Source: Candidatus Omnitrophota bacterium
GTDB taxonomy: Bacteria > Omnitrophota > Gorgyraeia > Tantalellales > Tantalellaceae
DNA: 64,000 nucleotides
Direction of reading: 5' to 3'
Assembly: GCA_015231405.1 (NCBI GenBank)
Contig: JADGBR010000007.1
Location: forward strand, 40,791 to 104,790
Position 1 is the first letter of the stretch. Every line of letters starts with the position of its first letter. The notes under the pieces are model-generated. The model did not search any database and had not been told where the DNA came from. It was given only the letters and a program-made list of their open reading frames with translations. The translations under genes and the position numbers were made by a program. This document shows positions 25,503-64,000 of this stretch, piece after piece.

Positions 25503-25527
25503 ACATTGAAATATTGCGGAGGCGGGT

Positions 25528-26079: not shown

Positions 26080-26083
26080 CCGG

Positions 26084-27139: not shown

Positions 27140-27249
27140 TACCGTTCCGTAATACTGAACCGTTCAGGCTATCGGCCGAATAACCGACCCCCGATCGATA
27201 GCTGTCGGGTAGTCTGTTCTGCCTGTATTAACTCGAAAACGCGAAAGAT

Positions 27250-28707: not shown

Positions 28708-28720
28708 CTGGTTGGATAAA

Positions 28721-30688: not shown

Positions 30689-30713
30689 ATGTGAATAAAT
30701 AACGGAAATTGTA

Positions 30714-46048: not shown

Positions 46049-46591
46049 ATGGAACGCCGTTCGATATTTCACTTGGTATCCAAGATATCCAGGCAGGCCG
46101 GAGTTAACTGTGTGCTGATCGGCGGATTTGCCGTTAATTATTACAAAGTCACAAGGCAGACAGCTGATGTCGATTTTATGATAACGGAAGAGGATTATAG
46201 AAAGATCGAAGCTTTGATCAAAGAGGCAGAATACAAAGAGGATCAAAGCCATGGGAATTTTATACGGTTAAAGAGTACCGGCAGCAAGTTCTTTATGGAT
46301 GTCGATTTTATGTTCGTAGATAAAAATACGCTGGATAAGATCCTGGACAATGGAAAAAAAATGACCATAGCGGGGCAGGAATTTACAGTGCCTTCTTTGA
46401 ACGATCTCATCGCGTTGAAACTCCATGCCCTTAAATACAATGCTAAACTGAGAGAGACTAAAGATCTGCCGGATATTATCGATCTTATCAGGATAAACAA
46501 TATAGAATATAAGAGCAAAGACTTTCACGATCTATGTTTTAAGTATGGTAATGCCGAGACATACGAAAAGATAATGAAAACACTGGAGTAA
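46049..46591 (+). CDS. Nucleotidyltransferase-fold protein (AbiEii/MJ1651-like minimal NTase?)
   Basis: VLIGGFAVNYY...DVDFMI pattern. Confidence 0.35.
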   Translation: MERRSIFHLVSKISRQAGVNCVLIGGFAVNYYKVTRQTADVDFMITEEDYRKIEALIKEAEYKEDQSHGNFIRLKSTGSKFFMDVDFMFVDKNTLDKILDNGKKMTIAGQEFTVPSLNDLIALKLHALKYNAKLRETKDLPDIIDLIRINNIEYKSKDFHDLCFKYGNAETYEKIMKTLE

Positions 46592-46865
46592 AAAGACTTG
46601 GATAAACTGAATTTTCCCGTTATTAAGGGATTAAAACCCAATAAAAAGATCCTGTCGATGGACGAATACCTTGAATTCGTTACATTCAATTTAAAATACA
46701 CCGTCGACAGGGAGGCAGTCCGCCGGTGGAAACGGAAACTTCGGGTAAATGTCCCTTTTGTGATCAAATAAAGGCGGGAAGCAGCCTTTCTCCCTTGGGG
46801 TTTTATAATTTGACAACGATTGCGATTTTATCTATAATTGCTTTTGAGATCGCACCCAATTTCGT

Positions 46866-46941
46866 TCCTCGGTAGCTCAATGGTAGTAGCGACTGGCTGT
46901 TAACCAGTAGGTTGTAGGTTCGAGTCCTACCCGAGGAGCCA
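46866..46941 (+). tRNA. tRNA-Asn (anticodon GTT)
   Basis: Hand-folded cloverleaf: acceptor TCCTCGG/CCGAGGA, anticodon stem ACTGG/CCAGT with loop CTGTTAA, T-arm GTAGG-TTCGAGT-CCTAC, discriminator G, encoded CCA. Confidence 0.85.
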
Positions 46942-46953
46942 TTCTTATATTGA

Positions 46954-46984
46954 GGGCCCATTCGCAAGAATGGGCCCTTTTCGT
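46954..46984 (+). terminator. Rho-independent terminator after tRNA-Asn
   Basis: Perfect 10-bp stem GGGCCCATTC-GCAA-GAATGGGCCC followed by TTTT. Confidence 0.65.
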
Positions 46985-47369
46985 TTAAATGGCTCCGAGG
47001 GTAGGACTCGAAGGGAGATCTGGAGCCTTTAATCAAGGTCTGGTCCGAGAGAGCGAGGACCAGACACACAACCGACAGATCGGGTGGCCGACCGGAGGCC
47101 TGCTATGTTTTTTGAGGAGCGAAAGCGACGAACAAAAACATGCTAGCGGGCCGAAGGCGCCGAGTCCCGCTTTCGTACGTTAAAACAAAACCAAATTGCC
47201 CCCCTATTTCCCTTGTCAAACCCACCATAAAATGCTATTGTAAACCCACGTCAGGGGGAATGTTTGACATGCGAGACCAGTCACAAACCTCAAATAACCA
47301 AAGCGTCACAAAAAAGGCACTGGGCTAACCCGGTGCCTTTTTTGCTTTTGAAAGAAAATAACGTCAATT

Positions 47370-49787
47370 ATGCGGCTTTATTCAGGAACATCAAAACAGT
47401 TTATTCAAGATGCGATTCATAATCAGATTGCAGAGAAGTTAAAAAACGCTTTTTTCGGCTATTACCGCTACAATCCTTCTCCTGCTGAGATAAATTCTTG
47501 GCGAAATTCGCTACGTTCAATGTCCCAAGTATTTCAACACGCAGATCTATTGGACAATGGAGTTCTTCTCGAGTATCAACTGCCTCTAACTTCGAGACGC
47601 TTAGATTGCATGATCTGTGGCCGTGATCAGCAAAAAACTGATAATGCGGTTATCGTGGAGTTGAAACAATGGGATAAGTGCGAAGAAGCCTATGGTGATA
47701 ACGAAGTACTTACGTGGGTAGGAGGTGCAAAACGCGAAGTATTGCATCCGTCGGTTCAAGTGGGACAATACCACCTTTATCTGGAAGATACCCATACAGC
47801 ATTTAACAGCGAAGATGATCCTGTTGTCCTGAATGCCTGTACTTATTTGCATAATTACAATTACTATTCTGAGGACATTATTTATTCGGATAAATTTGCT
47901 CAGACTCTTGAGAAGTACCCCTTATTTACAGCTGATGATGTGGAAAAATTAACGGGTTATTTGCGTAATAGACTTTTGGCCGGTGATGGCTTGGATGTTT
48001 TGCAGAGGATCGAAGAAAGTAAATATCGGCCGAATAAGAAGCTCATGGATCATGTTGGTAATATTATAAAAAACAAAACAGAATATATACTGCTAGATGA
48101 ACAACTTATTGTTTACGATGCGGTCTTGGCATGCGCGAAGCGAAGCTTCCATGATAAGCAGAAGTCAATAATTGTTGTAAAAGGTGGTCCGGGAACGGGT
48201 AAGTCTGTTATAGCGATTAATTTAATGGCTGATTTGCTATTAAAGGGATACAACTCTCATTATGCCACTGGCTCTAAGGCCTTCACGGAAACACTGCGGG
48301 AAATCATAGGAACTCGAGGATCTGTGCAGTTTAAGTATTTTAATAGTTACAGCCAAGCTGAAGAGAATGCCATAGATATCCTGATTGCTGATGAAGCCCA
48401 CCGCATACGCGAGACAAGCAATAGCCGATTCACACCCCGTTCGAGTCGATCAGAAAAGACGCAAATTGAGGAATTGCTTCGAGCGTCTAAAGTCGCGGTA
48501 TTTTTCATTGATGACGATCAAGTGGTGCGTCCAAATGAAATAGGTTCGGTTGATTATATTAAGAATATTGCGGGCGATAATAAAATAAAGCTCCACGAAT
48601 ATGAATTAGAAGCTCAGTTCCGTTGTAATGGTTCTGATGCGTTTGTGAGCTGGATAAACAATACGTTAGGGATAAAAAGAACTGCCCATGTTATTTGGGA
48701 TCAGCATGAAGAATTTGATTTCAAGATATTTCCCAGTCCCCTTGAACTTGATAATGCCATACGGAAGAGAGTCGCGCGGGGTTCTACGGGGAGAGTAACG
48801 GCCGGGTTTTGCTGGGACTGGTCATTACCTAACGGCGATGGCACATTGAAAAACGATGTGATAATTGGAGATTATAAGCGGCCATGGAATGCTAAACCCG
48901 AAGCTCAACGTCTGGCGCTGGGTATCCCCAAAGCTTCTCTGTGGGCATACGAACCTGTCGGCATTGATCAGGTAGGATGTGTCTATACCGCTCAAGGTTT
49001 TGAATTCGATTACGTTGGAGTTATTTTCGGCGAGGATGTGGTATATGATTTTGACAAGCAAGAATGGGTTGGCAATCCCGCTAAGTCTTCGGACAGAGTT
49101 GTTAAACGGTCTAAAGACAAATTTGCCGATTTAGTGAAAAATACCTATAGGGTTTTATTGAGTAGAGGGATGAAGGGCTGCTATGTATATTTCATGAATA
49201 AAGATACTGAACGTTTCTTTAAGTCACGGATTGAAGGTGATAATACACGGGTAGACGAACCCTTAACAGTATCTAAACTACTAGATAGCGAGTCGGATTT
49301 TCTTGAGCGTATTTTACAGGATGTTGACAGTTCTTTAAAATATAAGGAATATTTACCCGTTTATACTTTGACTGCAGCTGCTAGCGCGTTCGGCGAGGGT
49401 ATGGATGTTAGGGAAAAGGGTTGGATTAAAGTTAATATTGGAAAGCCACTAAACAGAAAATTGTTCGTTGCAAAAGTGGTTGGAAAATCAATGGAGCCGC
49501 TGATCCCAGATGGCAGCTATTGTGTATTTAGCGCGAATGTTGTTGGTACGCGGGCAAACAAAATAGTATTAGTGCAACACAATAGCATTTCAGATCTAGA
49601 TACCGGTGGAAGATATACCATAAAAAAGTACACGAGTAAGAAACGATACGCGTCAGATGAAACCTGGGAGCACGAAGAGATAGTCCTACTGCCAATTAAT
49701 CCCGCATATGCGCCGATTATAATACCAAATACCAACGAGGATGAATTTATGGTAATCGCTGAGTTTATTACCATAATAAAGAATTAG
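47370..49787 (+). CDS. PD-(D/E)xK nuclease / DUF2075-type P-loop ATPase fused to a C-terminal LexA-like S24 peptidase domain
   Basis: N-terminal nuclease-like D...VELK motif. Walker A GGPGTGKS and Walker B LIADEAH. C-terminal GKSMEP (Ser) ... TIKKY (Lys) ... VLLPINPAYAPI matches the LexA/UmuD catalytic-domain pattern. Confidence 0.7.
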   Translation: MRLYSGTSKQFIQDAIHNQIAEKLKNAFFGYYRYNPSPAEINSWRNSLRSMSQVFQHADLLDNGVLLEYQLPLTSRRLDCMICGRDQQKTDNAVIVELKQWDKCEEAYGDNEVLTWVGGAKREVLHPSVQVGQYHLYLEDTHTAFNSEDDPVVLNACTYLHNYNYYSEDIIYSDKFAQTLEKYPLFTADDVEKLTGYLRNRLLAGDGLDVLQRIEESKYRPNKKLMDHVGNIIKNKTEYILLDEQLIVYDAVLACAKRSFHDKQKSIIVVKGGPGTGKSVIAINLMADLLLKGYNSHYATGSKAFTETLREIIGTRGSVQFKYFNSYSQAEENAIDILIADEAHRIRETSNSRFTPRSSRSEKTQIEELLRASKVAVFFIDDDQVVRPNEIGSVDYIKNIAGDNKIKLHEYELEAQFRCNGSDAFVSWINNTLGIKRTAHVIWDQHEEFDFKIFPSPLELDNAIRKRVARGSTGRVTAGFCWDWSLPNGDGTLKNDVIIGDYKRPWNAKPEAQRLALGIPKASLWAYEPVGIDQVGCVYTAQGFEFDYVGVIFGEDVVYDFDKQEWVGNPAKSSDRVVKRSKDKFADLVKNTYRVLLSRGMKGCYVYFMNKDTERFFKSRIEGDNTRVDEPLTVSKLLDSESDFLERILQDVDSSLKYKEYLPVYTLTAAASAFGEGMDVREKGWIKVNIGKPLNRKLFVAKVVGKSMEPLIPDGSYCVFSANVVGTRANKIVLVQHNSISDLDTGGRYTIKKYTSKKRYASDETWEHEEIVLLPINPAYAPIIIPNTNEDEFMVIAEFITIIKN

Positions 49788-49897
49788 CACATAGACTTGA
49801 GCACATAGTCTTTGGGTTTAGAGAAATGTTATGAGATGAATATTTGTTATGGAACTGCTTCTAATATGGCAGTTTAAGTAAAGCGTCTTTGCTGGCT

Positions 49898-50078
49898 TAA
49901 CAGTGGTGTAATATGTTATGCACAGTGTCTGCGGGGATGCGGGGAGGGGAGAGTTTAAGCGAAGGTTATGCAAGAAAGCCGGCAGATGGGTGTCAAGGCG
50001 TAAAAAGGCACCCGGATTTGTTTCATAACTAACGGTGGTGTAATATGTTATGCACAGTGTCTGCGGGGAGAACGGGGC
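49898..50078. repeat. Two 40-bp direct repeats (49898-49937 and 50039-50078): TAAC(A/G)GTGGTGTAATATGTTATGCACAGTGTCTGCGGGGA
   Basis: Identical except for one base; located between the S24-fusion gene and its truncated 3' duplicate. Confidence 0.8.
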
Positions 50079-50093
50079 GGCTCGCGCAATGGA

Positions 50094-50318
50094 TTGGTGG
50101 TTTTAGTTGAGTCTCGTTTGGTGAGGGATCCGGAGTCCCACCAGAGTTTCACGATCAAACGATATCACAGCGAGAAGCAGGATCTTGGTGGTGGTGAATG
50201 GCGGCATAAGAAGATCACGCTATCGCCTGACAATAAGGATTTTCACGATATCGTGCTGAAAGATATTACCGGCGGGGATTTTCATGTAGTAGCCGAATTT
50301 GTTGAAGTGATCGTATAA
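50094..50318 (+). pseudogene. Truncated duplicate of an S24-domain C-terminus, a remnant of a paralogous DUF2075-S24-like gene
   Basis: VVLVESRLVRDPESHQSFTIKRYHSEK...HVVAEFVEVIV aligns with IVLVQHNSISDLDTGGRYTIKKYTSKK...MVIAEFITIIK of the upstream gene. Confidence 0.5.
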
Positions 50319-50335
50319 CTATATTGTGAGTAGCT

Positions 50336-51502
50336 ATGAAAAATGCCTTTATTGTTATGCAAATTGGTAATGCTGAGCTCGACTCTGTTTGCGAGCAAGC
50401 TATTGTCCCTGCCCTCAAAAAATGTGGTCTAGATCCCAAGCGAGTAGATAAGCATAATCAGGGAGGACTGCTGAAAAGCGAGATCGTAAATTTTATTGAA
50501 TCCTCGGAGATTATAATCGCCGATCTTACTAACGAAAGGCCAAATTGTTATTTGGAAGTTGGCTACGCGATGGGGTTAGATAAGTTTAGGCATCTGATAC
50601 TGACTGCGCGAGAGGATCACAATCACGATAGCCCAAATTATATAAAAACCGGTCCCAAGATTCATTTTGACTTAGCTGGTTATGATATTTTATTTTGGGA
50701 TCCGAAAAAACTCGACAATTTCAAAGATGAGCTTGAAAAGCGAGTTAAACGGCGCTTGGCTACTCTTCAAACCCCTCCCTCGAAAGAAGAAACTATTTGG
50801 GATGACGATTGGATAAATAATCATGCTGTTACCGCACATGCCAATTTAAAGAAATCAAATAAATCCGGATTTATGGAAATTCGAATGGTCATACCCAATT
50901 CAGGCCTCAATATTCCACAAAGTGAATTGCTGAGTGTTGCTGAACAGGCGACAATCCATACTTTTGGATGGCCAATCGGTGTTGTTCTGAAAAACAGGGA
51001 CGAATACCGACCGCGTCCTAAAACAGATGGTATTGTTGCTGATATAGACACAGGGGATCATTATGATTATTGGGCGATTAGGAAAGATGGCGCGTTCTAT
51101 CTCTTGAAAAGCTTATTCGAAGATATGCGAAAGCCGGGGCATCTATTTTTTAATACGCGTATTGTGAGGATTACGGAGGCGCTTTTGTATGCAGTGCGCC
51201 TTTATACTGGATTTAAAGTTCCAGCAGATTCCCGAGTCGTTATTGGAATAAAGCATGGTGGATTAAAAGATAGAATGCTCGTTTCTTCAAGTTTTTCGCG
51301 AGAACTTAGTTATGAAAGAAAATCGATCGAGGATGAGGTGTACACTGAGATTGACACTACTCTTGCTAAGATCGAGTCACAGTTACCCGATCAGGTTGAG
51401 GCACTTACAAAACCGCTATTCGTATTATTTGATTACTTTGAAATCGGCAGATCTGTTTTGGATGATATTGTTAATAAGTTTGTTGAAGGTAAGGTTACTT
51501 GA
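50336..51502 (+). CDS. Protein with an N-terminal nucleoside 2-deoxyribosyltransferase-like (NDT/SLOG-type) domain; C-terminal 250 aa unknown
   Basis: IIADLTNERPNCYLEVGYAMGL resembles the NDT family D...E[LI]G[YF]A catalytic-Glu motif. Confidence 0.45.
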   Translation: MKNAFIVMQIGNAELDSVCEQAIVPALKKCGLDPKRVDKHNQGGLLKSEIVNFIESSEIIIADLTNERPNCYLEVGYAMGLDKFRHLILTAREDHNHDSPNYIKTGPKIHFDLAGYDILFWDPKKLDNFKDELEKRVKRRLATLQTPPSKEETIWDDDWINNHAVTAHANLKKSNKSGFMEIRMVIPNSGLNIPQSELLSVAEQATIHTFGWPIGVVLKNRDEYRPRPKTDGIVADIDTGDHYDYWAIRKDGAFYLLKSLFEDMRKPGHLFFNTRIVRITEALLYAVRLYTGFKVPADSRVVIGIKHGGLKDRMLVSSSFSRELSYERKSIEDEVYTEIDTTLAKIESQLPDQVEALTKPLFVLFDYFEIGRSVLDDIVNKFVEGKVT

Positions 51503-51954
51503 TTTGTCCGAAGTTCTGATATAAACATTTTCTGCTCTTTGGGATTTTTAAGCATCTGCCGTAGCTGACGCTCGGTTATTAGCCGTTTTGGCATGGGATC
51601 GCCCAAGGCTTCAACGGCTTCGACCAGCGAAGGGTTAAGGTCAAGAAGGCTCGTATATTGCCAGATCCTGACCCGGGAGATGCCGACTTTGCGGGCAAGG
51701 TCGCTTTCGTTCTTGGCATGGCCTGATTCGATCATTCGGGCGTATTCCTTGGCCCGGAAGATGGGGTTCCGGTAGGTCTTTGGCGGTTTGGGGCGGATCC
51801 TGCGGGCTTCGTCAGGCGTCTGGCCTTCGCGGACGATGGAAATGATGCGATGATTCCATTTTCCCTGTTCGGTCACAAGCGCGGTGAAGTGCCATAACAG
51901 GCCTGAATCTGAATACCGTCCGGGGAGCCAATTTTCAGAAACCCCTACAGACAT
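51433..51954 (-). CDS. ParB/KorB-like HTH protein; start uncertain because the start codon sits inside a hairpin, and there is a 70-bp convergent overlap with the previous gene
   Basis: NPIFRAKEYARMIESGHAKNESDLARKVGISRVRIWQYTSLLDLNPSLVEAV resembles the ParB HTH region. Confidence 0.35.
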   Translation of the reverse strand: MSVGVSENWLPGRYSDSGLLWHFTALVTEQGKWNHRIISIVREGQTPDEARRIRPKPPKTYRNPIFRAKEYARMIESGHAKNESDLARKVGISRVRIWQYTSLLDLNPSLVEAVEALGDPMPKRLITERQLRQMLKNPKEQKMFISELRTNQVTLPSTNLLTISSKTDLPISK

Positions 51955-51990
51955 TTAGTTTGTAGGGGTTTTTCATTTTGGTATAATCTC
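51939..51990 (+). promoter_or_regulatory. Hairpin + T-run + TATAAT element, copy 1
   Basis: AAACCCCTACA ... TGTAGGGGTTT stem, then TTTTCATTTTGG, then TATAAT. A near-identical architecture sits at 53818-53867. Confidence 0.45.
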
Positions 51991-52498
51991 TTTAGCCTGA
52001 AGTTGAGAGATAAAAGGGAGATAAGAAGAATTATCGTTGACCATTTTGACTATATCGTTGATAAATGGAATGAATTTTAAAGGGCGTAATAATGTGAAGA
52101 AACTACATGATATAAAAAATATCTCTATCGACAAAATCTGTTTGAAGATGAATGTTGATGGACAAACAATAGTTGCGGAACTCGTTTAATGCATGGTCAA
52201 ATCTCTAATTTCTAATCTCAAAACACCGCTATCTCGACCCAAAAATCTATAACTTCCAGAGGTTATGATATAAAACCCGTATTCACAACACCGCGGAGAA
52301 TGATGGTTATCGGCGACTGATTGATCTTTTAAGCCTTTCTTTTGCTGAATGCAGGGGAGAGACCCTTTATTTAAGCGAAAGGCAAAATGCAAGAGGACAT
52401 AACCTCTAGCCTGAAATTCAAGTGATAGATATTAAATTTGCCTAAGAGTACGTAATAGTGTAAAATATACAACAATCGGTGTAATAAATACAACAAGG

Positions 52499-53071
52499 GT
52501 GGATATGAGCGTATTACTCGGAACCAGACTCCGCAACAAGCTGTTAACTTACGCGTTCTCCCGCGCGGACGGTGAGTTTTATGTGCGCGAGGCTGCCTCG
52601 GTCATAGGAGAGGACCCCGGCAACCTTTCAAGGGAGCTTAAACGCCTTGAGGGCGAGGGTCTTTTTGTTTCCCGCACTTCCGCGAACGCCAGATTTTATT
52701 CGGTCAATAAGAACTATTATCTTTTCAATGAGCTCAAGGCCGTTGTCGCCAAAACGTCGGGCGTTGAGGCCAGACTGAAGGACATAGCTGCGTCGCACAA
52801 AGAAATAGAGCTCGCGTTCATTTACGGATCATACGCGAAAAATACCGAGAAAAAAGGTTCTGATATCGACGTTGTCTTTGTAGGAAGATCTCTTCCCGAA
52901 AAGGTCATTACTGATATCAACTTGCTTGAGAGCGAGATCTCAAGAGAGATCAACTACACGTTCTACAAAAAAAACGACTTTGAGAAAAAACGCCTTGAAA
53001 AAGGCGGTTTTCTCGCCGAAGTTCTCGCCGGGAAAACCCTGGTACTGAAAGGGGAGGTCCATGAAAGATAA
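52499..53071 (+). CDS. HTH + minimal nucleotidyltransferase (MNT-type) protein
   Basis: N-terminal winged-helix-like region; NTase motif IYGSYAKNTEKKGSDIDVVFV. Confidence 0.6.
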   Translation: MDMSVLLGTRLRNKLLTYAFSRADGEFYVREAASVIGEDPGNLSRELKRLEGEGLFVSRTSANARFYSVNKNYYLFNELKAVVAKTSGVEARLKDIAASHKEIELAFIYGSYAKNTEKKGSDIDVVFVGRSLPEKVITDINLLESEISREINYTFYKKNDFEKKRLEKGGFLAEVLAGKTLVLKGEVHER

Positions 53072-53144
53072 ACTGGTAGAAAGGCTAATTAAGGAAGAAA
53101 AACTTTAAAAACAGACATCCGGGATAATTCAGGTAGAAAAACTT

Positions 53145-53534
53145 TTGAAAGAAGCCGTAATTGATATGGGAGAGGCATCGAAGATCAGAAATATTTCCGA
53201 AAGGGGAACATATCTTCTTGCCTACGGGGCGATGCTTAAAACCGGAAGGGCTCTCGTTCTTTTCCTGGGATATGTCCCGGATGACGGGGCGCAGCATAGG
53301 ACCGTGACAGAAATTGTCGCCGCGTGTCTGGGAGAAAAATTCAATAAAGTTACGTCTCATTTTGAAAGAATGCGCAGAAAAAGGAACGATCTTACATATG
53401 AGGCGGGCATTCTCCTTTCCGGAAGCGAAGCGGAAGAGGCGTTGTCCGACGCGAAAAAGCTTATCAGTGAAATATCTAACCACATAAAGACCAAGGATCC
53501 ACAGCTGCGGTTCGATTTTGAAGTTGAGTCATGA
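53145..53534 (+). CDS. HEPN-like / NTase-substrate-binding-like partner of the MNT gene (TTG start)
   Basis: Position directly downstream of the MNT gene. RMRRKRNDLTYEAG resembles the Rx4-6H HEPN motif but with Y/T in place of H. Assigned by context. Confidence 0.4.
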   Translation: MKEAVIDMGEASKIRNISERGTYLLAYGAMLKTGRALVLFLGYVPDDGAQHRTVTEIVAACLGEKFNKVTSHFERMRRKRNDLTYEAGILLSGSEAEEALSDAKKLISEISNHIKTKDPQLRFDFEVES

Positions 53535-53817
53535 TTTATTATACAGCCGGTGAAAAACTATCTGGATCAATATTTTGAGAAAGGCTCTTGAGTTGCGACC
53601 CGAGGGGTGCACTTATCGGGTATAAGGTTTTATGTTAGGCGAGAGGCAAGAGGATATAACCTTTGGCCTCGCGCCTATGGTGAAGTGACGGCTGACTAGG
53701 CCTGACGCCAAGTTTACCTGTGATCGACAAATTCCGACTAACTAGTGGTAGAGTTCTTCTTTAGGCAGGGCCAATAATGCACTGCGGTATTCGTTGATGA
53801 AGGGAGCTAAACTTCCA

Positions 53818-53867
53818 AAGCCCTTACAGACATTTAGTCTGTAAGGGCTTTTCTTTTTTGATATAAT
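53818..53867 (+). terminator. Hairpin + T-run + TATAAT element, copy 2 (terminator-like, 14-bp perfect stem)
   Basis: AAGCCCTTACAGAC-ATTTA-GTCTGTAAGGGCTT then TTCTTTTTTG then TATAAT. Confidence 0.5.
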
Positions 53868-53930
53868 CCTTTATAAGAGATCATACTTTATCTAAAGACA
53901 CTTCCATAAAACAATACAATAATTTCCAAA

Positions 53931-54271
53931 ACAAATCCGGGTAATTGAATGGCTAATACCCGGATTTATTTTGTAATGTCTTGACTATAAACAGCTTGCA
54001 GAAAGTGTCTGCCTGGGGTATATAAACAGCTTGCAGAAAGTGTCTGCCTGGGGTAAATACCCGGATTTATTTTGTAATGTCTTGACTATAAACAGCTTGC
54101 AGAAAGTGTCTGCCTGGGGTAAAGTGTCTGCCTGGGGTATTGACTATAAACAGCTTGCAGAAAGTGTCTGCCTGGGGTCAACAAATCCGGGTAATTGAAT
54201 GGCTAATACCCGGATTTATTTTGTAATGTCTTGACTATAAACAGCTTGCAGAAAATGACTGCCTGGGGTAT
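53931..54271. repeat. Nested direct-repeat (iteron-like) array upstream of kaiC
   Basis: A 91-bp unit (AACAAATCCGGGTAATTGAATGGCTAATACCCGGATTTATTTTGTAATGTCTTGACTATAAACAGCTTGCAGAAAGTGTCTGCCTGGGGTA) occurs at 53931 and 54181. Its 31-bp core AAACAGCTTGCAGAAAGTGTCTGCCTGGGGT occurs 5 times plus a partial, at irregular spacing. An internal 11-bp inverted repeat is AAATCCGGGTA/TACCCGGATTT. Confidence 0.85.
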
Positions 54272-54353
54272 TTCCAGGACGTTAGGGAAGGCCACTGGGC
54301 CCCGTTCTCGGTATTTCATGTAGGTCGCTAGGACGTGAAAAAAGGAGATCAGA

Positions 54354-55817
54354 ATGGCAAAATCAAAAAGTGTGTTGGGGGTGGGCAGAGTAATGCCTGA
54401 GCTACCTAAAGTTATGACCGGCATTCAGGGGTTAGATGAGATAACATTCGGAGGACTGCCAAAGGGGCGACCTACCCTTGTGTGCGGAGGCCCCGGTTGC
54501 GGCAAGACGCTCTTGGCTATGGAGTTTCTTTGCAGGGGCGCTCTGCAATATAACGAACCCGGCGTCTTTATTGCCTTCGAAGAGAAAGAGAAAGATCTGG
54601 AGGAAAATTTCGCCTCGCTCGGTTTCGATTTAAAATCGCTTGTAAAGCACAAAAAACTCGTTATCGATTATGTCTACATCGAAAGAAGCGAGATCGAAGA
54701 GACGGGCGAATATGATCTTGAAGGACTCTTCGTCCGTTTAGCGGCCGCCATTGATTCGATCGGCGCAAAAAGAGTAGTTCTCGATACCATCGAGGCCCTA
54801 TTTTCAGGGTTTTCAAATGAATCGATCCTGCGCGCGGAATTAAGGCGGCTATTCCGCTGGCTTAAAGATAAGGGAGTCACGGCAGTAATTACCGGCGAAA
54901 AAGGCGAGTCACTTCTAACAAAGCATGGATTGGAAGAGTATGTCGCGGATTGCGTCATACTCCTCGATCACCGCACGGTTAATCAGATTGCAACGAGACG
55001 TCTTAAGATAATAAAGTATCGCGGTTCAAAACACGGAACCAACGAATTCCCGTTCCTTATAGGCGAAACCGGTATCTCTGTTTTTCCCATGACGAGCTTA
55101 CTTTTATCAAGCACTGTGAGCTCTCGGCGTATATCATCCGGCATAAAGAGCCTCGATGAGATGTTGGGCAATAAAGGCTATTACAGGGGGAGCACTATCC
55201 TTGTATCCGGATCAGCAGGAAGCGGGAAGACCAGCTTTGGCGCCAAGTTTGTGGACGCCGTATGTGAGACTGGCGAACGCGCGTTATATCTCGCTTTTGA
55301 GGAGCCTGAAGACCAGCTATCCAGAAATATGAAGAGCATAGGTATCGATCTTAAGAAGTGGATAGATAAAGGGCTATTGAAGATCAATGCTAACAGGGCA
55401 ACCCTGTGCGGCCTTGAGATGCATCTTGTCATGGCGCATAACGCAGTAAGAGATTTTAAGCCGTCGGTCGTTGTCATAGATCCGATCACGACACTGATAG
55501 GCGCAGGGATGGCGGATGAGGCAAAAGCGATGATGGCCAGGCTTCTCGATTATCTTAGGAACGAAGGCATCACCGTTTTGGCGACAGACCTCTCGCTTGG
55601 CAGTACTCATGGGGATAGCGCGGAAATAGGCATATCATCTCTTTGTGACACGTGGATAAGGCTATCCATGGAAACTCAAGGATACAGGAGGATGCGCAGA
55701 CTTAGTATCATAAAATCAAGAGGCATGAAACATGCCCATGATACAAAAGATTTTATGATAACCGACAACGGGCTCGAGATGAAAGATATTCCCGGCCGAA
55801 AGGAGGACTTAAGATGA
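54354..55817 (+). CDS. kaiC: KaiC-like double RecA-domain ATPase
   Basis: [16 protein letters not shown], two Walker A motifs ([16 protein letters not shown]), 487 aa; strong RBS AAAAGGAGA. Confidence 0.85.
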
Positions 55818-56098
55818 AGAAGGCCGCTTATAGACTTAAATTATATGTAGCTGGGACAACGCCTAAATCATTAGAGGCTTTCGCTAATCTTAAAAAGATA
55901 TGCGAGGAGTATCTTAAGGGGCAATATTCTATCGAAGTAATAGATCTTATCAAAAACCCCAAGCTTGCCAAAGGCGACCAGATAATCGCGATACCGACAC
56001 TTGTAAGACACTTGCCCGAACCGATAAAGAAGATCATAGGCGATCTTTCCAACAAAGAGAAGGTTCTTGTGGGATTAAATATTATAAATAAAGGATAA
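55814..56098 (+). CDS. kaiB: KaiB, copy 1
   Basis: [25 protein letters not shown]...[25 protein letters not shown]; 94 aa. Confidence 0.85.
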
Positions 56099-56100
56099 AA

Positions 56101-56433
56101 ATGGCTAAACAAAAAAACGATATCGGAAAACAATTGGAACAGCGAACAAAGAAAAAAGAAATGAAAAAATATGTCCTTCATCTCTATGTCGCTGGTCTTT
56201 CTCCACGGTCACAAAAAGCGATAGATAATATAAAGAAACTATGCGATGAGCACTTAAAAGGTCAGTATGAACTTGTGATTCAGGATATATATAAGAACCC
56301 TGTGATGGCCAAGAACAGTCAGATACTTGCCGCGCCTACTCTTGTCAAAGAATTACCTTTGCCTCTACGCAAGTTTGTGGGGGATATGTCTAACACGGAA
56401 AGATTAATTCTCGGATTGGATCTTAAGGAATAA
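56101..56433 (+). CDS. kaiB: KaiB, copy 2 with basic N-terminal extension
   Basis: LHLYVAGLSPRSQKAIDNIKKLCDEHLKGQYELVIQDIYKNPVMAKNSQILAAPTLV; 110 aa. Confidence 0.8.
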   Translation: MAKQKNDIGKQLEQRTKKKEMKKYVLHLYVAGLSPRSQKAIDNIKKLCDEHLKGQYELVIQDIYKNPVMAKNSQILAAPTLVKELPLPLRKFVGDMSNTERLILGLDLKE

Positions 56434-56439
56434 TAATAA

Positions 56440-58915
<2,476 letters not shown>

Positions 58916-58926
<11 letters not shown>

Positions 58927-59278
58927 ACGAATTTTGATTATTGAAGATGATATCCATCTCGCCGATTCGCTTTCCGAGCTTTTAGAGGATGAAGGCTACT
59001 TTGTGGAGTGCGCCAAGGACGCAGTTAAGGGAGAGATCCTTATAAGAAAGGGCAACTTCGACGTCATTCTGCTGGATTACAAAATGCCCTTACTTAGCGG
59101 CATAGACATACTCAAAAAGCTTAAAGCCGATAATATAAGAAAACGTATTTTTATTGTCTCAGGAAGACCTTCTACGGAGCGATCTCTCAAAGAAGAAGAT
59201 GTTTTTGATATGATCAGCGGCATAATCGTAAAACCCATTAATATTGAAGCTTTTCTTGAGAAAATAAAAAATGCATAA
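58916..59278 (+). CDS. Stand-alone receiver-domain response regulator (CheY-like)
   Basis: ILIIEDD ... DVILLDYKMP ... phosphoacceptor pattern; 120 aa; overlaps the kinase stop by 11 bp. Confidence 0.85.
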
Positions 59279-59522
59279 AAGAATTTTGTTGGTAGACACC
59301 GATGTGAGTGTATGTGATTCAGTGGCTACTTTATTGCGACTCGAGGGGTATTGTGTTGATGAGATAACTTCGGGTGAAGCTAAATTTTGGATAGAACCGA
59401 TAGTGTCGTTAGCTTCATATTGCAAGTTAAACAAGGCTAAACTGAATCAGGCACAGAAATTAGTGGAGAAACATAAAGATGAGATCATTAAAGAATGGAA
59501 AAACTATTTCGGTAAGTGTTGA
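59271..59522 (+). pseudogene. Chimeric ORF: N-terminus of a second receiver domain fused in frame to the C-terminal half of a DUF4160-family protein
   Basis: MHKRILLVDTDVSVCDSVATLLRLEGY parallels the preceding regulator's N-terminus. AKFWIEPIVSLASYCKLNKAKLNQAQKLVEKHKDEIIKEWKNYF resembles the DUF4160 C-terminal helix region but lacks its N-terminal HPPHFHA part. Confidence 0.4.
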
Positions 59523-59739
59523 AAATATTACTCCTTTCGGTATTTGGTTGTATGTGAAGCAGAGAGAATATTTTTTGAGTTACGAGGATTACCCATATTT
59601 CAGGGAGAAACCCATATCTGCCATTCAAAAAGTTAAACTTCTTCACGGATTTCATCTTCATTGGAAAGATCTAGATGTTGATCTTGAAATTGATAATTTG
59701 GAAAATCCTGAAAAATATCCATTGAAAAGCAAGGATTAG
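59479..59739 (+). CDS. DUF2442-family protein
   Basis: ITPFGIWLYVKQREYFLSYEDYPYF ... LHWKDLDVDLEIDNL pattern. Confidence 0.55.
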   Translation: MRSLKNGKTISVSVENITPFGIWLYVKQREYFLSYEDYPYFREKPISAIQKVKLLHGFHLHWKDLDVDLEIDNLENPEKYPLKSKD

Positions 59740-59897
59740 GTTTGTTTAAATAGCCGCGAAACTCGTCCAATCCGGGGAACCAATTTGTAACAAGGGCAGA
59801 ACTTCACTTTTTGAGGTTCTGCCTTTGTCGTTTATTATGGGGATGTTATAGTGAACTGTGGCTTTGGATGGGTAACAGCTATCCTTTCGATAAACGA

Positions 59898-59920
59898 TTA
59901 CGCATTATGACACAGTCTGA
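59898..59920 (+). repeat. Left 23-bp direct repeat TTACGCATTATGACACAGTCTGA bounding the AbiEi-like/Fic module
   Basis: Matches 61770-61792 (TTACGCATTGTGACACAGTCTGA) at 22/23. Inverted copy at 61604-61623; partial copies at 61643-61656 and 61750-61763. Confidence 0.8.
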
Positions 59921-59953
59921 GTGCGTATTCGTGATCTGATCGCTAAAAATTAT

Positions 59954-59992
59954 TTGACTTGTTGTCAGAAAAATGATATATGTTTTCTGACA
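59954..59992 (+). promoter_or_regulatory. Putative sigma70-type promoter with embedded operator palindrome upstream of the AbiEi-like gene
   Basis: TTGACT (59954-59959), 17-bp spacer, TATATG (59977-59982). Perfect 10-bp inverted repeat TGTCAGAAAA (59963-59972) / TTTTCTGACA (59983-59992) overlaps the -10. Confidence 0.45.
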
Positions 59993-59999
59993 TATAAAA

Positions 60000-60608
60000 G
60001 TGATAAATATGACAGAATCCATTGAGAATAGAATACTTCACCGGATCATTGGCAAGAAAAAGGGGTGGGTGTTTGCCCCAACTCATTTTTTTGATCTTGG
60101 AAATCGTGCCGGGATAGATCAGGCCTTAAGCCGGTTGGTTCGGTCTCGGGATATCCGCAGATTAACGCGTGGTCTTTATGATTATCCCCGGAAGGATCCG
60201 ACTTTTGGAGATGTGCCTCCAAGCGTTGATCGTCTTGCCGCCGCACTTGCTGAAAAAGATAATCTTAAGATCCAACCTTCCGGAGCATACGCGGCCAACT
60301 TGCTTGGCATGTCTCATCAAGTACCGGCAAAGATTGTTTTCTTAACAGACGGATCTTCCCGTATGGTTCAGATCGGCAATTGGCATATTAAGTTAAAAAA
60401 GACAACACCCAAGAATATGGCGACCGCTGGGCGCATGAGCGGCTTGGTTATTCAAGCCTTACGTTATATGACGCAAGAGAATATCGATGGCAAAATTATT
60501 AAAAAACTTAAAGGAAAATTATCAGTCGAGGACAAAAAACAGCTTATGAGTGATATTCGTTATGCCCCGGCTTGGATAGGTGAAATATTTAAACAGCTAA
60601 ATTCGTAG
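60000..60608 (+). CDS. AbiEi-like / DUF6088-type winged-HTH protein (putative antitoxin/regulator)
   Basis: GWVFAPTHFFDLGNRAGIDQALSRLVRSRDIRRLTRGLYDYP pattern. GTG at 60000 or ATG at 60009. Confidence 0.5.
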   Translation: MINMTESIENRILHRIIGKKKGWVFAPTHFFDLGNRAGIDQALSRLVRSRDIRRLTRGLYDYPRKDPTFGDVPPSVDRLAAALAEKDNLKIQPSGAYAANLLGMSHQVPAKIVFLTDGSSRMVQIGNWHIKLKKTTPKNMATAGRMSGLVIQALRYMTQENIDGKIIKKLKGKLSVEDKKQLMSDIRYAPAWIGEIFKQLNS

Positions 60609-60655
60609 CATTTTCTTGGCTTTTATACCAGTAAGCCAGTAAGGATGGAGGACAT

Positions 60656-61396
60656 ATGAAAGAGATTTTAAGTAAGGTTGAAGAGGCTCAGGCGAAAATA
60701 AACGCATTGCGTCCATTTTGTAATGAAATGAACCATCAAATAAAGGAATATTTTCGTATCGGGCTCACCTATTCAAGCAATGCGCTTGAGGGCAACTCTC
60801 TGACGATATCGGAAACAAAAGTGGTCATCGAGGATGGGCTTACCATAGCCGGAAAGCCGCTTAGAGATCATTACGAGGCCACGGGCCACAGTGACGCGTT
60901 CGATCACATGTATGCTCTCTCTACAGGAAAAACGATAACGGAAGAAGATACTAAAAAATTGCACGCGCTCTTTTATCACCGCATTAAAGAAGGGGATGCG
61001 GGGGTGTATCGAAAAGTCCAGGCCATTATTACCGGCTCTCAATATCCATTGCCTACGCCTGAGGCATTGCCGGGAATGATGCAGAAATTTATTAAAGATC
61101 TGCCCAATTTAAAAATAGACAACCATCCGGTTGTCTATGCCGCCAAGCTCCATAAAGAGTTTGTGTTCATTCACCCGTTTGTTGATGGCAATGGGCGGGT
61201 AGCAAGACTTTTAATGAATGTGGCGCTTATGCAGGCAGGATACATTATTGCGATCATTCCGCCGCTCAAACGGTCGGAATACATCAGCGCTCTTGAAAAA
61301 TCGCATAAAATTGATGCGGATTTTATTGAGTTGATAGCGTCATGCGTCTATGAAACTCAGAACGATCTATTACGCATGGCTAATGGGAAAAGTTGA
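60656..61396 (+). CDS. fic: Fic-family protein (class II, with intrinsic N-terminal inhibitory motif)
   Basis: HPFVDGNGRVARLL active-site motif. N-terminal SNALEG matches the (S/T)xxxE(G/N) inhibitory motif. Confidence 0.9.
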   Translation: MKEILSKVEEAQAKINALRPFCNEMNHQIKEYFRIGLTYSSNALEGNSLTISETKVVIEDGLTIAGKPLRDHYEATGHSDAFDHMYALSTGKTITEEDTKKLHALFYHRIKEGDAGVYRKVQAIITGSQYPLPTPEALPGMMQKFIKDLPNLKIDNHPVVYAAKLHKEFVFIHPFVDGNGRVARLLMNVALMQAGYIIAIIPPLKRSEYISALEKSHKIDADFIELIASCVYETQNDLLRMANGKS

Positions 61397-61465
61397 ATTA
61401 ATGATGTGATGCAAACAGACCATTTTGTCGACCTCAACGAAATAGTTGATCGAGAGGTCGTGCGA

Positions 61466-61627
61466 TGAAAGTCAAAGAGCTGATCGATCGGTTGAAAGCT
61501 CTGCCAGCTGAAACTCAGGTACTAGCAAAGGGATATGAAGATGGATTTGACGGCATTATTGCCGTTAAGGAGATCGCTGTTGCCAAGAAGCCTGCCGCCG
61601 CTGATTACAGTCAGACTGTGTCATAAT
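61466..61627 (+). CDS. Possible small ORF (53 aa) whose 3' end runs into the inverted copy of the 20-bp boundary motif
   Basis: ATG with GAGAGG 8 nt upstream; MKVKELIDRLKALPAETQVLAKGYEDGFDGIIAVKEIAVAKKPAAADYSQTVS. Confidence 0.2.
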
Positions 61628-61769
61628 CCGAAAGCGGCACGAAACACAGTCTGAGTTTTTACAAAAACCAATGTTTTATCAAACTCTTATCCTCCTAGTA
61701 AACCCAAAAGGCTCACTAGGAGGGTAAGAACAACTTTTTTTCTGAAAAGATTCAGACTGTGTCCCTCTA

Positions 61770-61792
61770 TTACGCATTGTGACACAGTCTGA
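61770..61792 (+). repeat. Right 23-bp direct repeat TTACGCATTGTGACACAGTCTGA
   Basis: See the left-repeat entry at 59898-59920. Confidence 0.8.
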
Positions 61793-61982
61793 CTGCTAGC
61801 TGCAGATCCTTCGATTATACTCCGGTACAATTGACGCCATCCTGTATACTGCTACGATAAAGCTGTATGAATTTACTAACGTTATGCCGGACGATCACAT
61901 TCTTGTGAGTCTGATAAGCGGTATAGCGGTACGAGGGATGTTTAAAAGTTAAAAACCTTAAAACTAATAAAGGAGGCAATTT

Positions 61983-62717
61983 ATGAAACGCATCGTTTAT
62001 TTCACTGTATCTATCATGATCCTATTCCTATCGGCGCGGCCAACGCACGCCGATGATAACCGAGGCAATGAGAACATGAGAAAATACAAGGGAACGGACC
62101 AAAATAATGACGGTAAGATCACGCGCGAGGAATGGCAGAGTTTTTTTAATAACCATGATTGGAACGGTGATGGCATCCTATCGGGCGGCGAGATGAATCC
62201 GAGAGCGAGCCGTCAGGATGTAACGTTAACCGCTTCCGATCAATTCCGCGCATTAGACCGGAACAACGATGGCATGATCTCAACCGGCGAATGGACAGGT
62301 ACGATGCAGGACTTTAATAGCCTGGATAGGGATAGCAACAACAATGTAAGTATTAACGAGTTCTATCAGCGCTCGGGGACAGATCAATTCAGCGAACTCG
62401 ATTACAATAAGGATGGGATCATTTTACGCGATGAATGGCGTAACACCTCGCAGTCATTTGAAGCTCTGGATCAGAACCGCGACGGAAAATTGACCCGAGA
62501 TGAATTTTATAATACGCAAAAATACAACGTTTCCGTCTTCCGCGAGCTCGATCAGAACAACGACGGTAAGATCTCGCGCAGCGAATGGCGCAGTACGAAC
62601 GACGCTTTTAACAGGCTGGACAGCAATGGGGATGAGCTATTGAGCGAGAATGAATTCAATTCAACTCAAAGTCGCAGTATCACTCAAACGATATTTCAGG
62701 AAATCTTTGGAAAGTGA
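61983..62717 (+). CDS. Secreted EF-hand calcium-binding repeat protein
   Basis: Signal peptide; at least seven DxNxDGxIxxxE loops (DQNNDGKITREE, DWNGDGILSGGE, DRNNDGMISTGE, DYNKDGIILRDE, DQNRDGKLTRDE, DQNNDGKISRSE, DSNGDELLSENE). Confidence 0.8.
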   Translation: MKRIVYFTVSIMILFLSARPTHADDNRGNENMRKYKGTDQNNDGKITREEWQSFFNNHDWNGDGILSGGEMNPRASRQDVTLTASDQFRALDRNNDGMISTGEWTGTMQDFNSLDRDSNNNVSINEFYQRSGTDQFSELDYNKDGIILRDEWRNTSQSFEALDQNRDGKLTRDEFYNTQKYNVSVFRELDQNNDGKISRSEWRSTNDAFNRLDSNGDELLSENEFNSTQSRSITQTIFQEIFGK

Positions 62718-62999
62718 GATAATAAAAAAATTGGCAGTTAAGTAGAAACGGGGGGCGTGTCAAAATGGGACACAGCGTTAACGTTTCCCTGTCCCAAGGG
62801 GACACGTCCTCGGATCAGGTGGCCATAGCCAGCTCTTTAGCCGGTATCCCGTCATGAATCAGTAGCGAAACTCGTCCACGTGGATGTGCCAAATTCCCTG
62901 AGACCCAGAGACATTCGATTTGTAAGAGCTTATCTGATTTGATATAATTTATCGGTGCTCATAAAAGGGGGCCTCAAATGACACTGGGAGAAGCGCAGC

Positions 63000-63791
63000 A
63001 TGAAACCTAGAACTTCAGAGGGTGTACGGGCAAAACGAACTCGAAAGTCCGGCGCGTGGCATTTGGAGGCCGCTTTTCTTCTGGGACGGAACGTGAAAAA
63101 GGTCTCGAATACCCTGGGCCGGGCCGCTGAAAAAGCGGACGGAAGGGCCAAGAAGACAAGAATTATCGAGCCGGCGATGTCTCCGATCCTCGCCGAGATA
63201 AAAGGGATCATGGATGTCAGCGGGTTGTCGGACGCTATCCGGGAAATGAACGAGATCAGCCTGAAACATTCGAGACATCCGGTGATAGCGGGGTTGATAG
63301 CAAAGATCGGATGTTTGCCTCCCGCGGAGCAGGAAGATCTTTCGAGAAAATTCGTCGACAGGCTCGGCGAGAACCCCTGTTTCTATGACAAGTCGTGTTT
63401 TCTTCCGGGACAAGTAAAATTGAACGAAGAGGATTGCCGGAGAATGTCGGATTCGTTCATCGAGTGCGCGTTCCTGGCCTTGAAAGACATGGGGATGATA
63501 GACGGCGAAGCTGATATTTTGCGGCAACTGACCGGGGAGGTCGCACGGCCGATCAATGACCTGATCCAGTTCTACGTTAAACCGAAAACCTTTGGAGAGA
63601 AGATCAAACGCCTGTGGCGTATGCAAGGCGTATTAATAAGAACGGTCAGTTTGATCGCGAAGGCGAATGCCCTTCGCCCGGATCTTTCGGGTGGTCCTGT
63701 CAAAGCCGATATCGTTTACCCGTTCGGGTCCCTCTCGGGGCAACCCGGGCGAACCTGTGAGCCAAAAAACGGAAAGTCTATTCGGACCTAG
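63000..63791 (+). CDS. Hypothetical protein
   Basis: Long ORF on + strand. The antisense ORF 63015-63626 looks compositionally worse. No motifs recognised. Confidence 0.3.
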   Translation: MKPRTSEGVRAKRTRKSGAWHLEAAFLLGRNVKKVSNTLGRAAEKADGRAKKTRIIEPAMSPILAEIKGIMDVSGLSDAIREMNEISLKHSRHPVIAGLIAKIGCLPPAEQEDLSRKFVDRLGENPCFYDKSCFLPGQVKLNEEDCRRMSDSFIECAFLALKDMGMIDGEADILRQLTGEVARPINDLIQFYVKPKTFGEKIKRLWRMQGVLIRTVSLIAKANALRPDLSGGPVKADIVYPFGSLSGQPGRTCEPKNGKSIRT

Positions 63792-63943
63792 TTCCGGCGT
63801 CTTTCTCCTGGAACCTCTCCTAATCCCCTGGACTCACCTGGGAATTTGTCCTATAATTGTCCGTGGATACGGACCTTCGGGTATTAGGGAAAATGCGCGA
63901 GGCAGCGCCTATTGTCCCGGTTCTCGAATAAGAAGGGAGAAAC

Positions 63944-64000
63944 ATGCCACTAGCTCAAAAGATATTACTGGTCGTCGCGACCGTACCGCTCGGCGTTATA
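63944..64000 (+). CDS. 5' end of a CDS running off the window (MPLAQKILLVVATVPLGVI..., signal/TM-like)
   Basis: ATG with AAGGGAGAAAC RBS. Confidence 0.3.
   Translation, partial: MPLAQKILLVVATVPLGVI

Follow-up and report, generated by a model that had tools for sequence, protein, structure and literature searches.

The DNA considered here is a 64-kb stretch of a Candidatus Omnitrophota genome (assembly GCA_015231405.1, contig JADGBR010000007.1, positions 40,791 to 104,790 of the forward strand); the whole stretch is called the window below, and coordinates are positions within it unless another locus is named. Our subject is a low-GC tract of roughly 17 kb, at ~46.0-62.9 kb, in which a tRNA-Asn gene lies among putative defence and toxin-antitoxin (TA) genes and an operon of kai genes. 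A sequence-only reading of this DNA had described an accessory island with defence-like, TA, plasmid-like and kai genes, and almost all of its gene calls were reproduced: an S24-fusion nuclease, an NDT-like gene, an HTH_ParB gene, an MNT/HEPN pair (a minimal nucleotidyltransferase and its HEPN partner), a repeat array, a KaiCBB-kinase-regulator module, a DUF4160/DUF2442 pair, an AbiEi-like/Fic module and an EF-hand gene. What did not hold was the plasmid-like character ascribed to some of these features.

Composition of the tract and its tRNA-Asn gene

The left 46 kb of the window hold ordinary chromosomal genes (ThyX, PEPCK, PurC, Sua5, IspD, a polysaccharide cluster at 20-37 kb, SNF2/SWIM, phosphorylase, DJ-1 and DinB). 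At ~46.0 kb, at the start of dinB and ~0.9 kb ahead of the tRNA-Asn gene, GC content drops, and the change of composition is abrupt at both ends of the tract. Between 46942 and 62900 the GC content is 0.438, compared with 0.498-0.509 in the core parts of the window and 0.519 in 62901-64000, the 1.1 kb that constitute the whole of the visible right flank. GC at third codon positions (GC3) averages 0.452 over 19 open reading frames (ORFs) of the island, compared with 0.604 over 29 ORFs of the core (Mann-Whitney p = 1.5e-8). Tetranucleotide usage was compared in 4-kb segments, each excluded from its own reference; its correlation to the core was 0.888 +/- 0.035 in 15 core segments and 0.54-0.76 in the island, corresponding to z = -3.7 to -10. 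The DNA between tRNA-Asn and ~62.9 kb had been judged by eye to be AT-richer than its flanks, and GC, GC3 and tetranucleotide usage all bear this out, with the amendments that the tract already starts at ~46.0 kb and that its interior is not uniform.

This heterogeneity is visible at the level of bins (0.527 GC at 57-58 kb) and of single genes, the GC3 of which ranges from 0.29 to 0.565. Values of 0.29-0.41 were found for the nuclease-helicase-S24 gene, the 388-aa gene, both kaiB genes, the response regulator and the DUF4160, DUF2442 and AbiEi genes, and values of 0.51-0.565 for the HTH_ParB, MNT, KaiC, kinase and EF-hand genes. The GC3 of HTH_ParB, MNT, KaiC and the kinase overlaps the low end of the core range, and the composition of this central block is the least deviant of the tract.

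The leftmost gene of the tract encodes a DUF2204/AbiEii-like nucleotidyltransferase (46049-46591, + strand; Pfam DUF2204, 3.9e-9, and AbiEii, 2.4e-8; PADLOC AbiEii). Its GC content is 0.392, against 0.524 for the adjoining dinB, and it is followed by a 57-aa ORF (46598-46771). As the tract starts before the tRNA and covers this AbiEii-like gene, tRNA-Asn lies within the tract and not at its edge. The tRNA-Asn(GTT) gene itself (46866-46941, + strand; ARAGORN; Rfam tRNA, 66.2 bits) is a complete unit, with a perfect TTGACA-17-TATAAT promoter at 46810-46838 (+) detected by promoter scan and a terminator hairpin at 46952-46979 (+) detected by terminator scan. The spacer that follows (46942-47369, 428 nt) is GC-rich and strongly structured (z = -5.5); nothing credible was found in Rfam at permissive thresholds for this spacer or for the repeat array upstream of kaiC.

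Beyond the terminator hairpin, 44 nt past the tRNA-Asn gene, lies an inverted 25-nt copy of the tRNA 3' end, from the T-loop to CCA (46988-47012, - strand, 23/25 matches or 92%), and the window holds no further copy. Patterns with <=3 mismatches, blastn-short and k-mers down to 10-mers detected no directly oriented repeat of this 3' end, for which GGTTCGAGTCCTACCCGAGGAGCCA is the relevant sequence, anywhere in the 64 kb; there is therefore no attR in the window, and the inverted copy at 46988-47012 is not one either. The attR that was to be sought at 62.7-63.0 kb and beyond is accordingly missing from all of the DNA in view, and neither this result nor the extension of the tract to both sides of the gene supports tRNA-Asn as the anchor of the island.

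Gene modules and repeats

The first gene after the tRNA unit encodes an 805-aa Nhi-like protein (47370-49787, + strand; GC3 0.38) matching Pfam families and the PADLOC models PDC-S41/AbiO/Nhi. An SF1 helicase domain of the SLFN-g3/DUF2075 family (PF09848, 1.2e-89) is followed by a C-terminal, LexA-like Peptidase_S24 domain. Across 32 homologs there is no variation in residues D79, E97 and K99 of an N-terminal PD-(D/E)xK-type motif, in the Walker A motif or in the S24 dyad S707/K752. A PDB sequence search with the single protein gave nothing useful; its predicted structure (pLDDT 68.8) matches the folds of SLFN11, RecD2 and Dna2 over the whole protein, the N-terminal domain having no match on its own. 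An Ala-Gly motif like that of LexA (AAAG) precedes the S24 domain in the closest relatives and reads AAAS in the window copy (residues 670-672, 49377-49385); across the 32 homologs the last position of AAA(G/S/T) is G in 21, T in eight and S in three.

The family comprises at least 8000 homologs, all with E <= 1e-10. Among the matches listed, full-length homologs in other Omnitrophota metagenome-assembled genomes (MAGs), GCA_964634935.1, GCA_043826625.1 and GCA_043814605.1 among them, share 85-90% amino acid identity with the window protein, and those in Auribacterota, Betaproteobacteria and others 64-83%. Nucleotide identity to the three closest copies (L161-L163) is 77-81% and is confined to 47355-49774, beginning 15 nt before the ATG. 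The surroundings of these three copies comprise, respectively, RloB/AAA_15 and HNH genes; a second SLFN helicase and a radical SAM gene; and AbiEii, MNT/HEPN and SLFN_AlbA genes. In the first of them (L161 6718-16200, another Omnitrophota MAG), the order AAA_15/RloB, MazG-like, nuclease-helicase-S24, HNH follows directly after a tRNA-His gene. No integrase or tRNA-derived repeat was found at any of the three loci. No close relative of the protein was found in viral contigs, and the five relatives returned by a profile search all lack the S24 domain, so a phage origin of the gene was rejected.

All three closest homologs have a 115-aa MazG-like gene upstream that overlaps them by 4 nt (L161 9657-12415, L162 2374-5135, L163 9657-12409), and this partner gene is absent upstream of the window copy, which is therefore an orphan. 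No DUF2075 + MazG or DUF2075 + S24 system beyond Nhi-like proteins was found described in the literature. This arrangement suggests that the MazG-like protein and the nuclease-helicase-S24 protein form an undescribed two-gene system, widespread and, to judge from the searches made, uncharacterised. With its predicted self-cleaving peptidase of the LexA type, the pair would be a candidate for a defence system triggered by DNA damage or RecA. Downstream, a 74-aa ORF (50094-50318, + strand) was recognised by tblastn as the C-terminal remnant of a second, divergent S24 domain; over 72 aa it is 32-36% identical to the S24 ends of L161-L163 (E 1e-10 to 1e-11). A 40-nt direct repeat (49898-49937 and 50030-50069) lies upstream of it.

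The next gene (50336-51502, + strand; GC3 0.36) encodes a two-domain protein of 388 aa, nucleoside 2-deoxyribosyltransferase (NDT)/TIR-like in its N-terminal domain, that matches a PADLOC TIR-effector model (1.7e-10). It has no Pfam match, and a PDB search with the single sequence gave nothing useful. With a family profile of the N-terminal domain, the sole PDB matches were to the NDT-family entries 6qai, 2a0k and 8rpt; they are weak (E 0.46-1.5) and lie over an invariant Glu74. The C-terminal domain is swappable, being fused to TIR or GGDEF domains elsewhere.

On the opposite strand follows a 173-aa protein (51433-51954, -) that carries an HTH_ParB domain and nothing else of ParB (PF17762, 3.3e-6, residues 63-154 only). 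The N-terminal domain of ParB is lacking, and the NCBIfam parB_part score of 24.5 bits falls short of the cut-off of 58.45. A tblastn search of 72,556 plasmids with this protein returned no match. Having been counted among plasmid-maintenance features, the protein most likely regulates transcription rather than serving in partition. The annotated start overlaps a hairpin, so translation may truly begin at a more internal position of the ORF. Similar small HTH_ParB genes adjoin MNT/HEPN genes in Omnitrophica WOR_2.

The MNT/HEPN module consists of a winged-helix HTH plus MNT protein of the PDC-M05A type (52499-53071, + strand; Pfam Polbeta, 1.3e-11; PADLOC PDC-M05A over the full length, 3.2e-45), with further matches to NCBIfam MntA (far below cut-off) and to an ArsR-like HTH, both sub-cut-off, and of a HEPN partner of the PDC-M05B type (53061-53534, + strand; PADLOC, 8e-13). 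The HEPN frame opens with an ATG at 53061 and meets an in-frame TAA 15 codons on, at 53106-53108, within the first copy of a 39-nt tandem duplication located in 53061-53150. The HEPN homolog at L163 aligns through the position of the TAA. Because of this in-frame stop, the toxin-like partner may be inactivated or disrupted, or shortened at its N-terminus by a restart at TTG 53145.

Between a terminator and kaiC, with the HEPN gene and kaiC as its nearest genes, lies a repeat array (53930-54280, + strand) identified by repeat search. It contains six copies of the 19-nt AAAGTGTCTGCCTGGGGTA, five of a 49-nt unit and three of a hairpin unit, and the spacing of AAAGTGTCTGCCTGGGGTA is irregular (35, 66, 18, 40 and 91 nt). 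The 19-nt sequence has eight matches in the window against 0.31 expected, and a related motif occurs at 49924 and 50056, upstream of the 74-aa and 388-aa genes; the 19-nt motif is absent from 169 compared loci. The array had been called iteron-like and hence suggestive of a plasmid, a reading that we rejected given the irregular spacing, the position next to kaiC and the lack of a Rep domain or initiator gene nearby. A sigma-54 promoter was likewise discarded, as the GG-GC spacing is wrong by eye. Together with the related motif copies upstream of the 74-aa and 388-aa genes, the array fits duplicated junctions better than a replication origin, and the likeliest interpretation is a duplicated terminator/promoter-operator region.

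The kai operon starts directly 3' of the array. Its kaiC (54354-55817, + strand) scores 659.7 bits with the NCBIfam KaiC model PRK09302 (cut-off 408) and contains two PF06745 stretches. Then follow two kaiB genes (55814-56098 and 56101-56433, both +; the two E-values being 9e-28 and 1.5e-22), a histidine kinase with four PAS domains (56440-58926, +; Pfam) and a REC-only response regulator (58916-59278, +; Pfam). KaiA was found among none of the scanned ORFs of the window. The kinase is 828 aa long, against 387-403 aa in most related operons; its first ~270 residues align well with the 403-aa kinases (46-49%), and overall it resembles a 932-aa kinase from Lentisphaerae (45% over 648 aa). At its 3' end lies a perfect (AAGA)x12 run (58864-58912), which encodes the tail KERKKERKKERKKER and stops just ahead of the start of the regulator; to judge from the repeat itself, this is a possible slippage-prone site.

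The order kaiC-kaiB-kaiB-PAS kinase is kept at nine other loci (L165-L173), and so is the REC regulator, except in the two Lentisphaerae loci L170 and L171. KaiC is 81-84% identical in these Omnitrophota and Lentisphaerae contigs, and the flanks differ from genome to genome (xseAB, metabolic genes, RND efflux/PilZ or TA genes), so that in these bacteria the neighbourhood of kai operons is changeable. The GC content of the operon tracks that of its host in other genomes. In the two WOR_2 loci (L167 3229-6979 and L168 6195-9945), an rve_3 transposase, an HTH_ParB gene on the - strand, MNT, HEPN and HTH_17 genes precede the kai operon, and a Gp49/HigB-type TA pair follows it. The HTH_ParB and MNT proteins of WOR_2 are 22-29% identical to those of the window and the HEPN proteins do not match; it is therefore doubtful that the two HTH_ParB/MNT/HEPN blocks share ancestry. 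As this arrangement occurs in two Omnitrophota lineages, a functional wiring of the kai operon to the upstream HTH_ParB/MNT/HEPN genes is a weak possibility.

The end of the kai operon overlaps a chimeric ORF (59271-59522, + strand; GC3 0.38) in which the N-terminus of a REC domain is joined to the C-terminal part of DUF4160 (Pfam). Its first 33-43 aa match the N-termini of response regulators, with 58% identity to the kai-operon regulator of L172, and the fusion marks a junction left by a deletion where the operon ends. It is followed by a DUF2442 gene (59479-59739, +; Pfam; GC3 0.29) and by the AbiEi/Fic module (59897-61796), made up of an AbiEi-like gene (60000-60608, +; PADLOC AbiEi, 1.6e-69; Pfam DUF6088), a Fic gene (60656-61396, +; PADLOC PDC-S04/SoFic; Pfam Fic) and, at its end, a 53-aa ORF (61465-61626, +). 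The last gene before the composition regains core values encodes a protein with multiple EF-hands (61983-62717, +; Pfam EF-hand families; GC3 0.56), the N-terminus of which looks hydrophobic by eye.

Several of these modules are separated by similar intergenic sequences. One such element, J1, a degenerate terminator hairpin plus TGnTATAAT, was found by repeat search at 51923-51979, 53802-53858 and 62909-62948 (all +), with a weaker relative at ~59.8 kb; its third copy marks the right edge of the island and the promoter of a 263-aa ORF in the right flank (63000-63791). A second short motif occurs at ~52.39 and ~53.65 kb, so that two pairs of direct repeats, one nested in the other, enclose the MNT/HEPN module. 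For the AbiEi/Fic module the brackets are direct repeats of 28 nt (59897-59924 and 61769-61796), the 12-nt core of which, GACACAGTCTGA, has five copies in total against 0.04 expected. Two TA modules are thus each bracketed by direct repeats ~1.87 kb apart. These junction repeats are absent from the other 46 kb of the window and from 178 compared loci. They may be shared regulatory junctions or substrates of module exchange.

Three further observations concern the flanks. The 263-aa protein has, in 5.8 billion proteins, one homolog besides itself (46% identity, in an Omnitrophica MAG), encoded beside dCMP-deaminase-family and RhuM-Fic genes. At the far left of the window, a 1399-aa ORF (36-4235) matches no Pfam family and lacks homologs in all compared loci. 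The region 20267-31991, with a GC content of 0.433, is a polysaccharide/O-antigen-type cluster with an epimerase, a DegT aminotransferase, two AsnB-like amidotransferases, a flippase and glycosyltransferases.

Assembly and origin of the tract

The tract at 46.0-62.9 kb probably represents a variable region of the chromosome around tRNA-Asn, a defence/TA island of mosaic make-up in which a kai operon is embedded, and not one element. It would consist of at least eight self-contained modules, each predicted to be able to act alone (AbiEii-like; orphan Nhi-like; NDT/TIR-like; HTH_ParB; HTH-MNT/HEPN; kai operon; DUF4160/DUF2442; AbiEi-like/Fic; EF-hand). PADLOC matches extend over five modules, the models being PDC-S41/AbiO/Nhi, a TIR-type effector, PDC-M05A/B, AbiEi, PDC-S04/SoFic and AbiEii. 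As in a defence island, several candidate defence, Abi or TA systems lie within a few kb, and one member, the 805-aa gene, has homologs in different defence-rich contexts elsewhere. This module appears to be of horizontal origin, since its homologs of 85-90% identity occur in unlike neighbourhoods, whereas the best relatives of flanking genes reach 58-59% (DinB, in two collections), 69% (ThyX) and 46% (the 263-aa protein). Scars of turnover are present as well, in the missing MazG-like partner, the S24 remnant, the stop-bearing HEPN frame and the REC::DUF4160 fusion. Composition, homolog contexts and decay scars together point to many separate acquisitions rather than to one element.

Under such a history, modules would be gained, replaced and eroded singly through recombination at a permissive site, and this turnover would leave behind gene remnants and repeated terminator/promoter junctions. 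The blocks at ~47-51.5 kb and ~59.3-61.8 kb, which are the most atypical, look like the latest arrivals, and the central HTH_ParB-MNT/HEPN-kai block, nearer to the host in composition, is read as older or native. We infer this piecemeal recombination history, as well as the putative defence function of individual modules, from the features given above.

Several points weigh against it. A GC content just as low (0.433) is found in the polysaccharide cluster at 20-32 kb, so low GC alone is no proof of foreign origin. The right boundary of the tract and the core status of the right flank are weakly defined, because this flank amounts to 1.1 kb with a single gene that has one other homolog. The 84% identity of KaiC could be vertical, as this protein evolves slowly, with 62-64% identity even to sampled hits at the far end of the hit list (one of them named Chloroflexi). 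DinB-based scans of genome and metagenome contigs yielded no relative above 59%, no conserved synteny and no tRNA-Asn beside dinB; it is by composition, homolog contexts and scars that the tract is termed a variable region.

The first alternative is that the tract belongs natively to the chromosome and was inherited vertically, being AT-rich for functional reasons and having perhaps one or two recent insertions. Many TA and regulatory genes are AT-rich, the polysaccharide cluster is a native locus with the same bias, the GC3 of 0.51-0.565 in the HTH_ParB, MNT, KaiC and kinase genes overlaps the low core range, the GC of kai operons follows that of the host elsewhere, and an analogous HTH_ParB(-)/MNT/HEPN/kaiC order exists in Omnitrophica WOR_2. 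However, over its entire length the tract is 3.7-10 standard deviations away from the core in tetranucleotide usage, no flanking gene comes near the 805-aa gene in similarity to genes of other genomes, and several genes are truncated or fused. The orthology with WOR_2 is not clear at the low identities given above, and the flanks of the kai operon differ in every other genome examined. On balance we regard a native origin of the whole tract as unlikely.

A second alternative, quite unlikely in our estimation, treats the junction repeats as footprints of a cassette exchange of defence/TA modules that would proceed with no resident integrase, powered in trans or by way of homologous recombination. 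The footprints would be J1, the motif at ~52.39 and ~53.65 kb and the 28-nt repeats; two TA modules have direct repeats on either side, and modules bracketed in this way might inform how such islands assemble. The hairpin repeats were also considered as attC sites, a reading dismissed because by eye they lack RYYYAAC/GTTRRRY ends.

Rather less credit still is due to the idea, put forward in the sequence-only reading, of an integrated plasmid or integrative and conjugative element (ICE) remnant, that is, of a single plasmid, ICE or mobilisable island, acquired by way of tRNA-Asn, whose integrase was lost or lies beyond 64 kb. tRNA genes are classic integration sites for mobile elements, a fragment of the tRNA-Asn 3' end adjoins the gene, the composition is atypical, the region holds an HTH_ParB-domain gene, direct repeats and several TA modules, and the contig continues outside the view beyond position 64 kb. 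Yet the sole 3'-end fragment is inverted and 44 nt off, and the low-GC tract extends upstream of tRNA-Asn. The statement that no integrase is in view was upheld, as Pfam scans of the 59 window ORFs and six-frame translations of the main intergenic regions of the island revealed no integrase, transposase or recombinase. Relaxase, type IV secretion system (T4SS), Rep and ParA genes were likewise absent from the 59 ORFs, and no remnant of them was detectable by six-frame Pfam scans of seven intergenic regions of the island, a search of limited sensitivity that also missed the S24 remnant detected by tblastn. The ParB match is limited to the HTH domain, and the repeats flank kaiC rather than an initiator gene. 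When the whole island was compared with plasmids by blastn, only scattered gene-level matches to kaiC, DUF2075 and Fic appeared, with no synteny, and tblastn of the 805-aa protein against plasmids found distant DUF2075 genes only. The heterogeneous GC3 and the module-specific homolog contexts also indicate many separate events. An integrated plasmid or ICE is thus very unlikely.

Finally, a chimeric contig in which 46-63 kb came from another organism of the sample is highly improbable: the source is a MAG and the composition changes abruptly at both ends, but core-like composition returns on both sides within one contig of 108.8 kb, the best homologs of island genes are mostly from Omnitrophota, a tRNA unit with its own promoter and terminator stands amid the tract, and no repeats of a length to cause misjoining were seen at the two borders.

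Comparison with known systems

The region lacks the testable defining features of a tRNA-integrated island or ICE and of a ParABS/iteron plasmid module. Genomic islands and ICEs that are integrated at a tRNA and carry a tyrosine recombinase include the asn-tRNA-associated islands of Enterobacteria. Like such elements, the tract adjoins tRNA-Asn, is atypical in composition and carries accessory cargo; unlike them, the window has no integrase, attL/attR or transfer genes, and the tRNA is flanked left and right by AT-rich accessory DNA. CALINs are integron cassette arrays without an integrase, and cis-mobilisable elements are flanked by att sites. Co-oriented small modules, repeated intergenic elements and two repeat-bracketed TA modules recall both, whereas the window shows, by eye, no attC-like consensus, has no IntI, and each of its modules has its own promoter and terminator.

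At the level of single modules, Nhi and Nhi-like proteins are single-gene anti-phage proteins with an N-terminal nuclease and DUF2075 (bioRxiv 10.1101/2022.05.11.491447). The 805-aa protein resembles them in its PF09848 core, placed after a domain with an invariant D...ExK, and in its matches to the PADLOC Nhi and AbiO models; it differs from them in the additional C-terminal S24 domain with its invariant Ser/Lys dyad and in the MazG-like partner of its closest relatives. The MNT/HEPN module has the order of MNT-HEPN (type VII) TA or PDC-M05 systems, an HTH-nucleotidyltransferase followed by HEPN, with a full-length PDC-M05A match and an M05B match; it departs from them in the early in-frame stop of its HEPN gene and in an NCBIfam MntA score far below cut-off. 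The kai operon is like non-cyanobacterial KaiBC operons, for example those with kaiC on Cereibacter sphaeroides replicons, in having a double-domain KaiC, then KaiB and a PAS histidine kinase, and unlike them in its two kaiB genes, REC-only regulator, TA/defence neighbours and repeat array on the 5' side.

As a whole, the tract comes closest to defence hotspots. Core defence hotspots have reportedly been described in P. aeruginosa, some of them with no identifiable mobile element. tRNA genes as integration sites, and defence hotspots at tRNA loci of the E. coli pan-genome, some of which likewise have no identifiable mobile element, have been documented (PMC10121019). The tract shares with the hotspots of both species the defence/TA modules next to a tRNA, the atypical composition and the presence of the same systems in other neighbourhoods elsewhere. 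It differs from them in its host, an uncultured member of the Omnitrophota, in also containing a kai operon and an EF-hand gene, and in being known from one genome rather than from a strain comparison. As an island the region is ordinary, and it adds an example of defence/TA genes beside a tRNA without a visible mobile element from Omnitrophota, a little-studied phylum.

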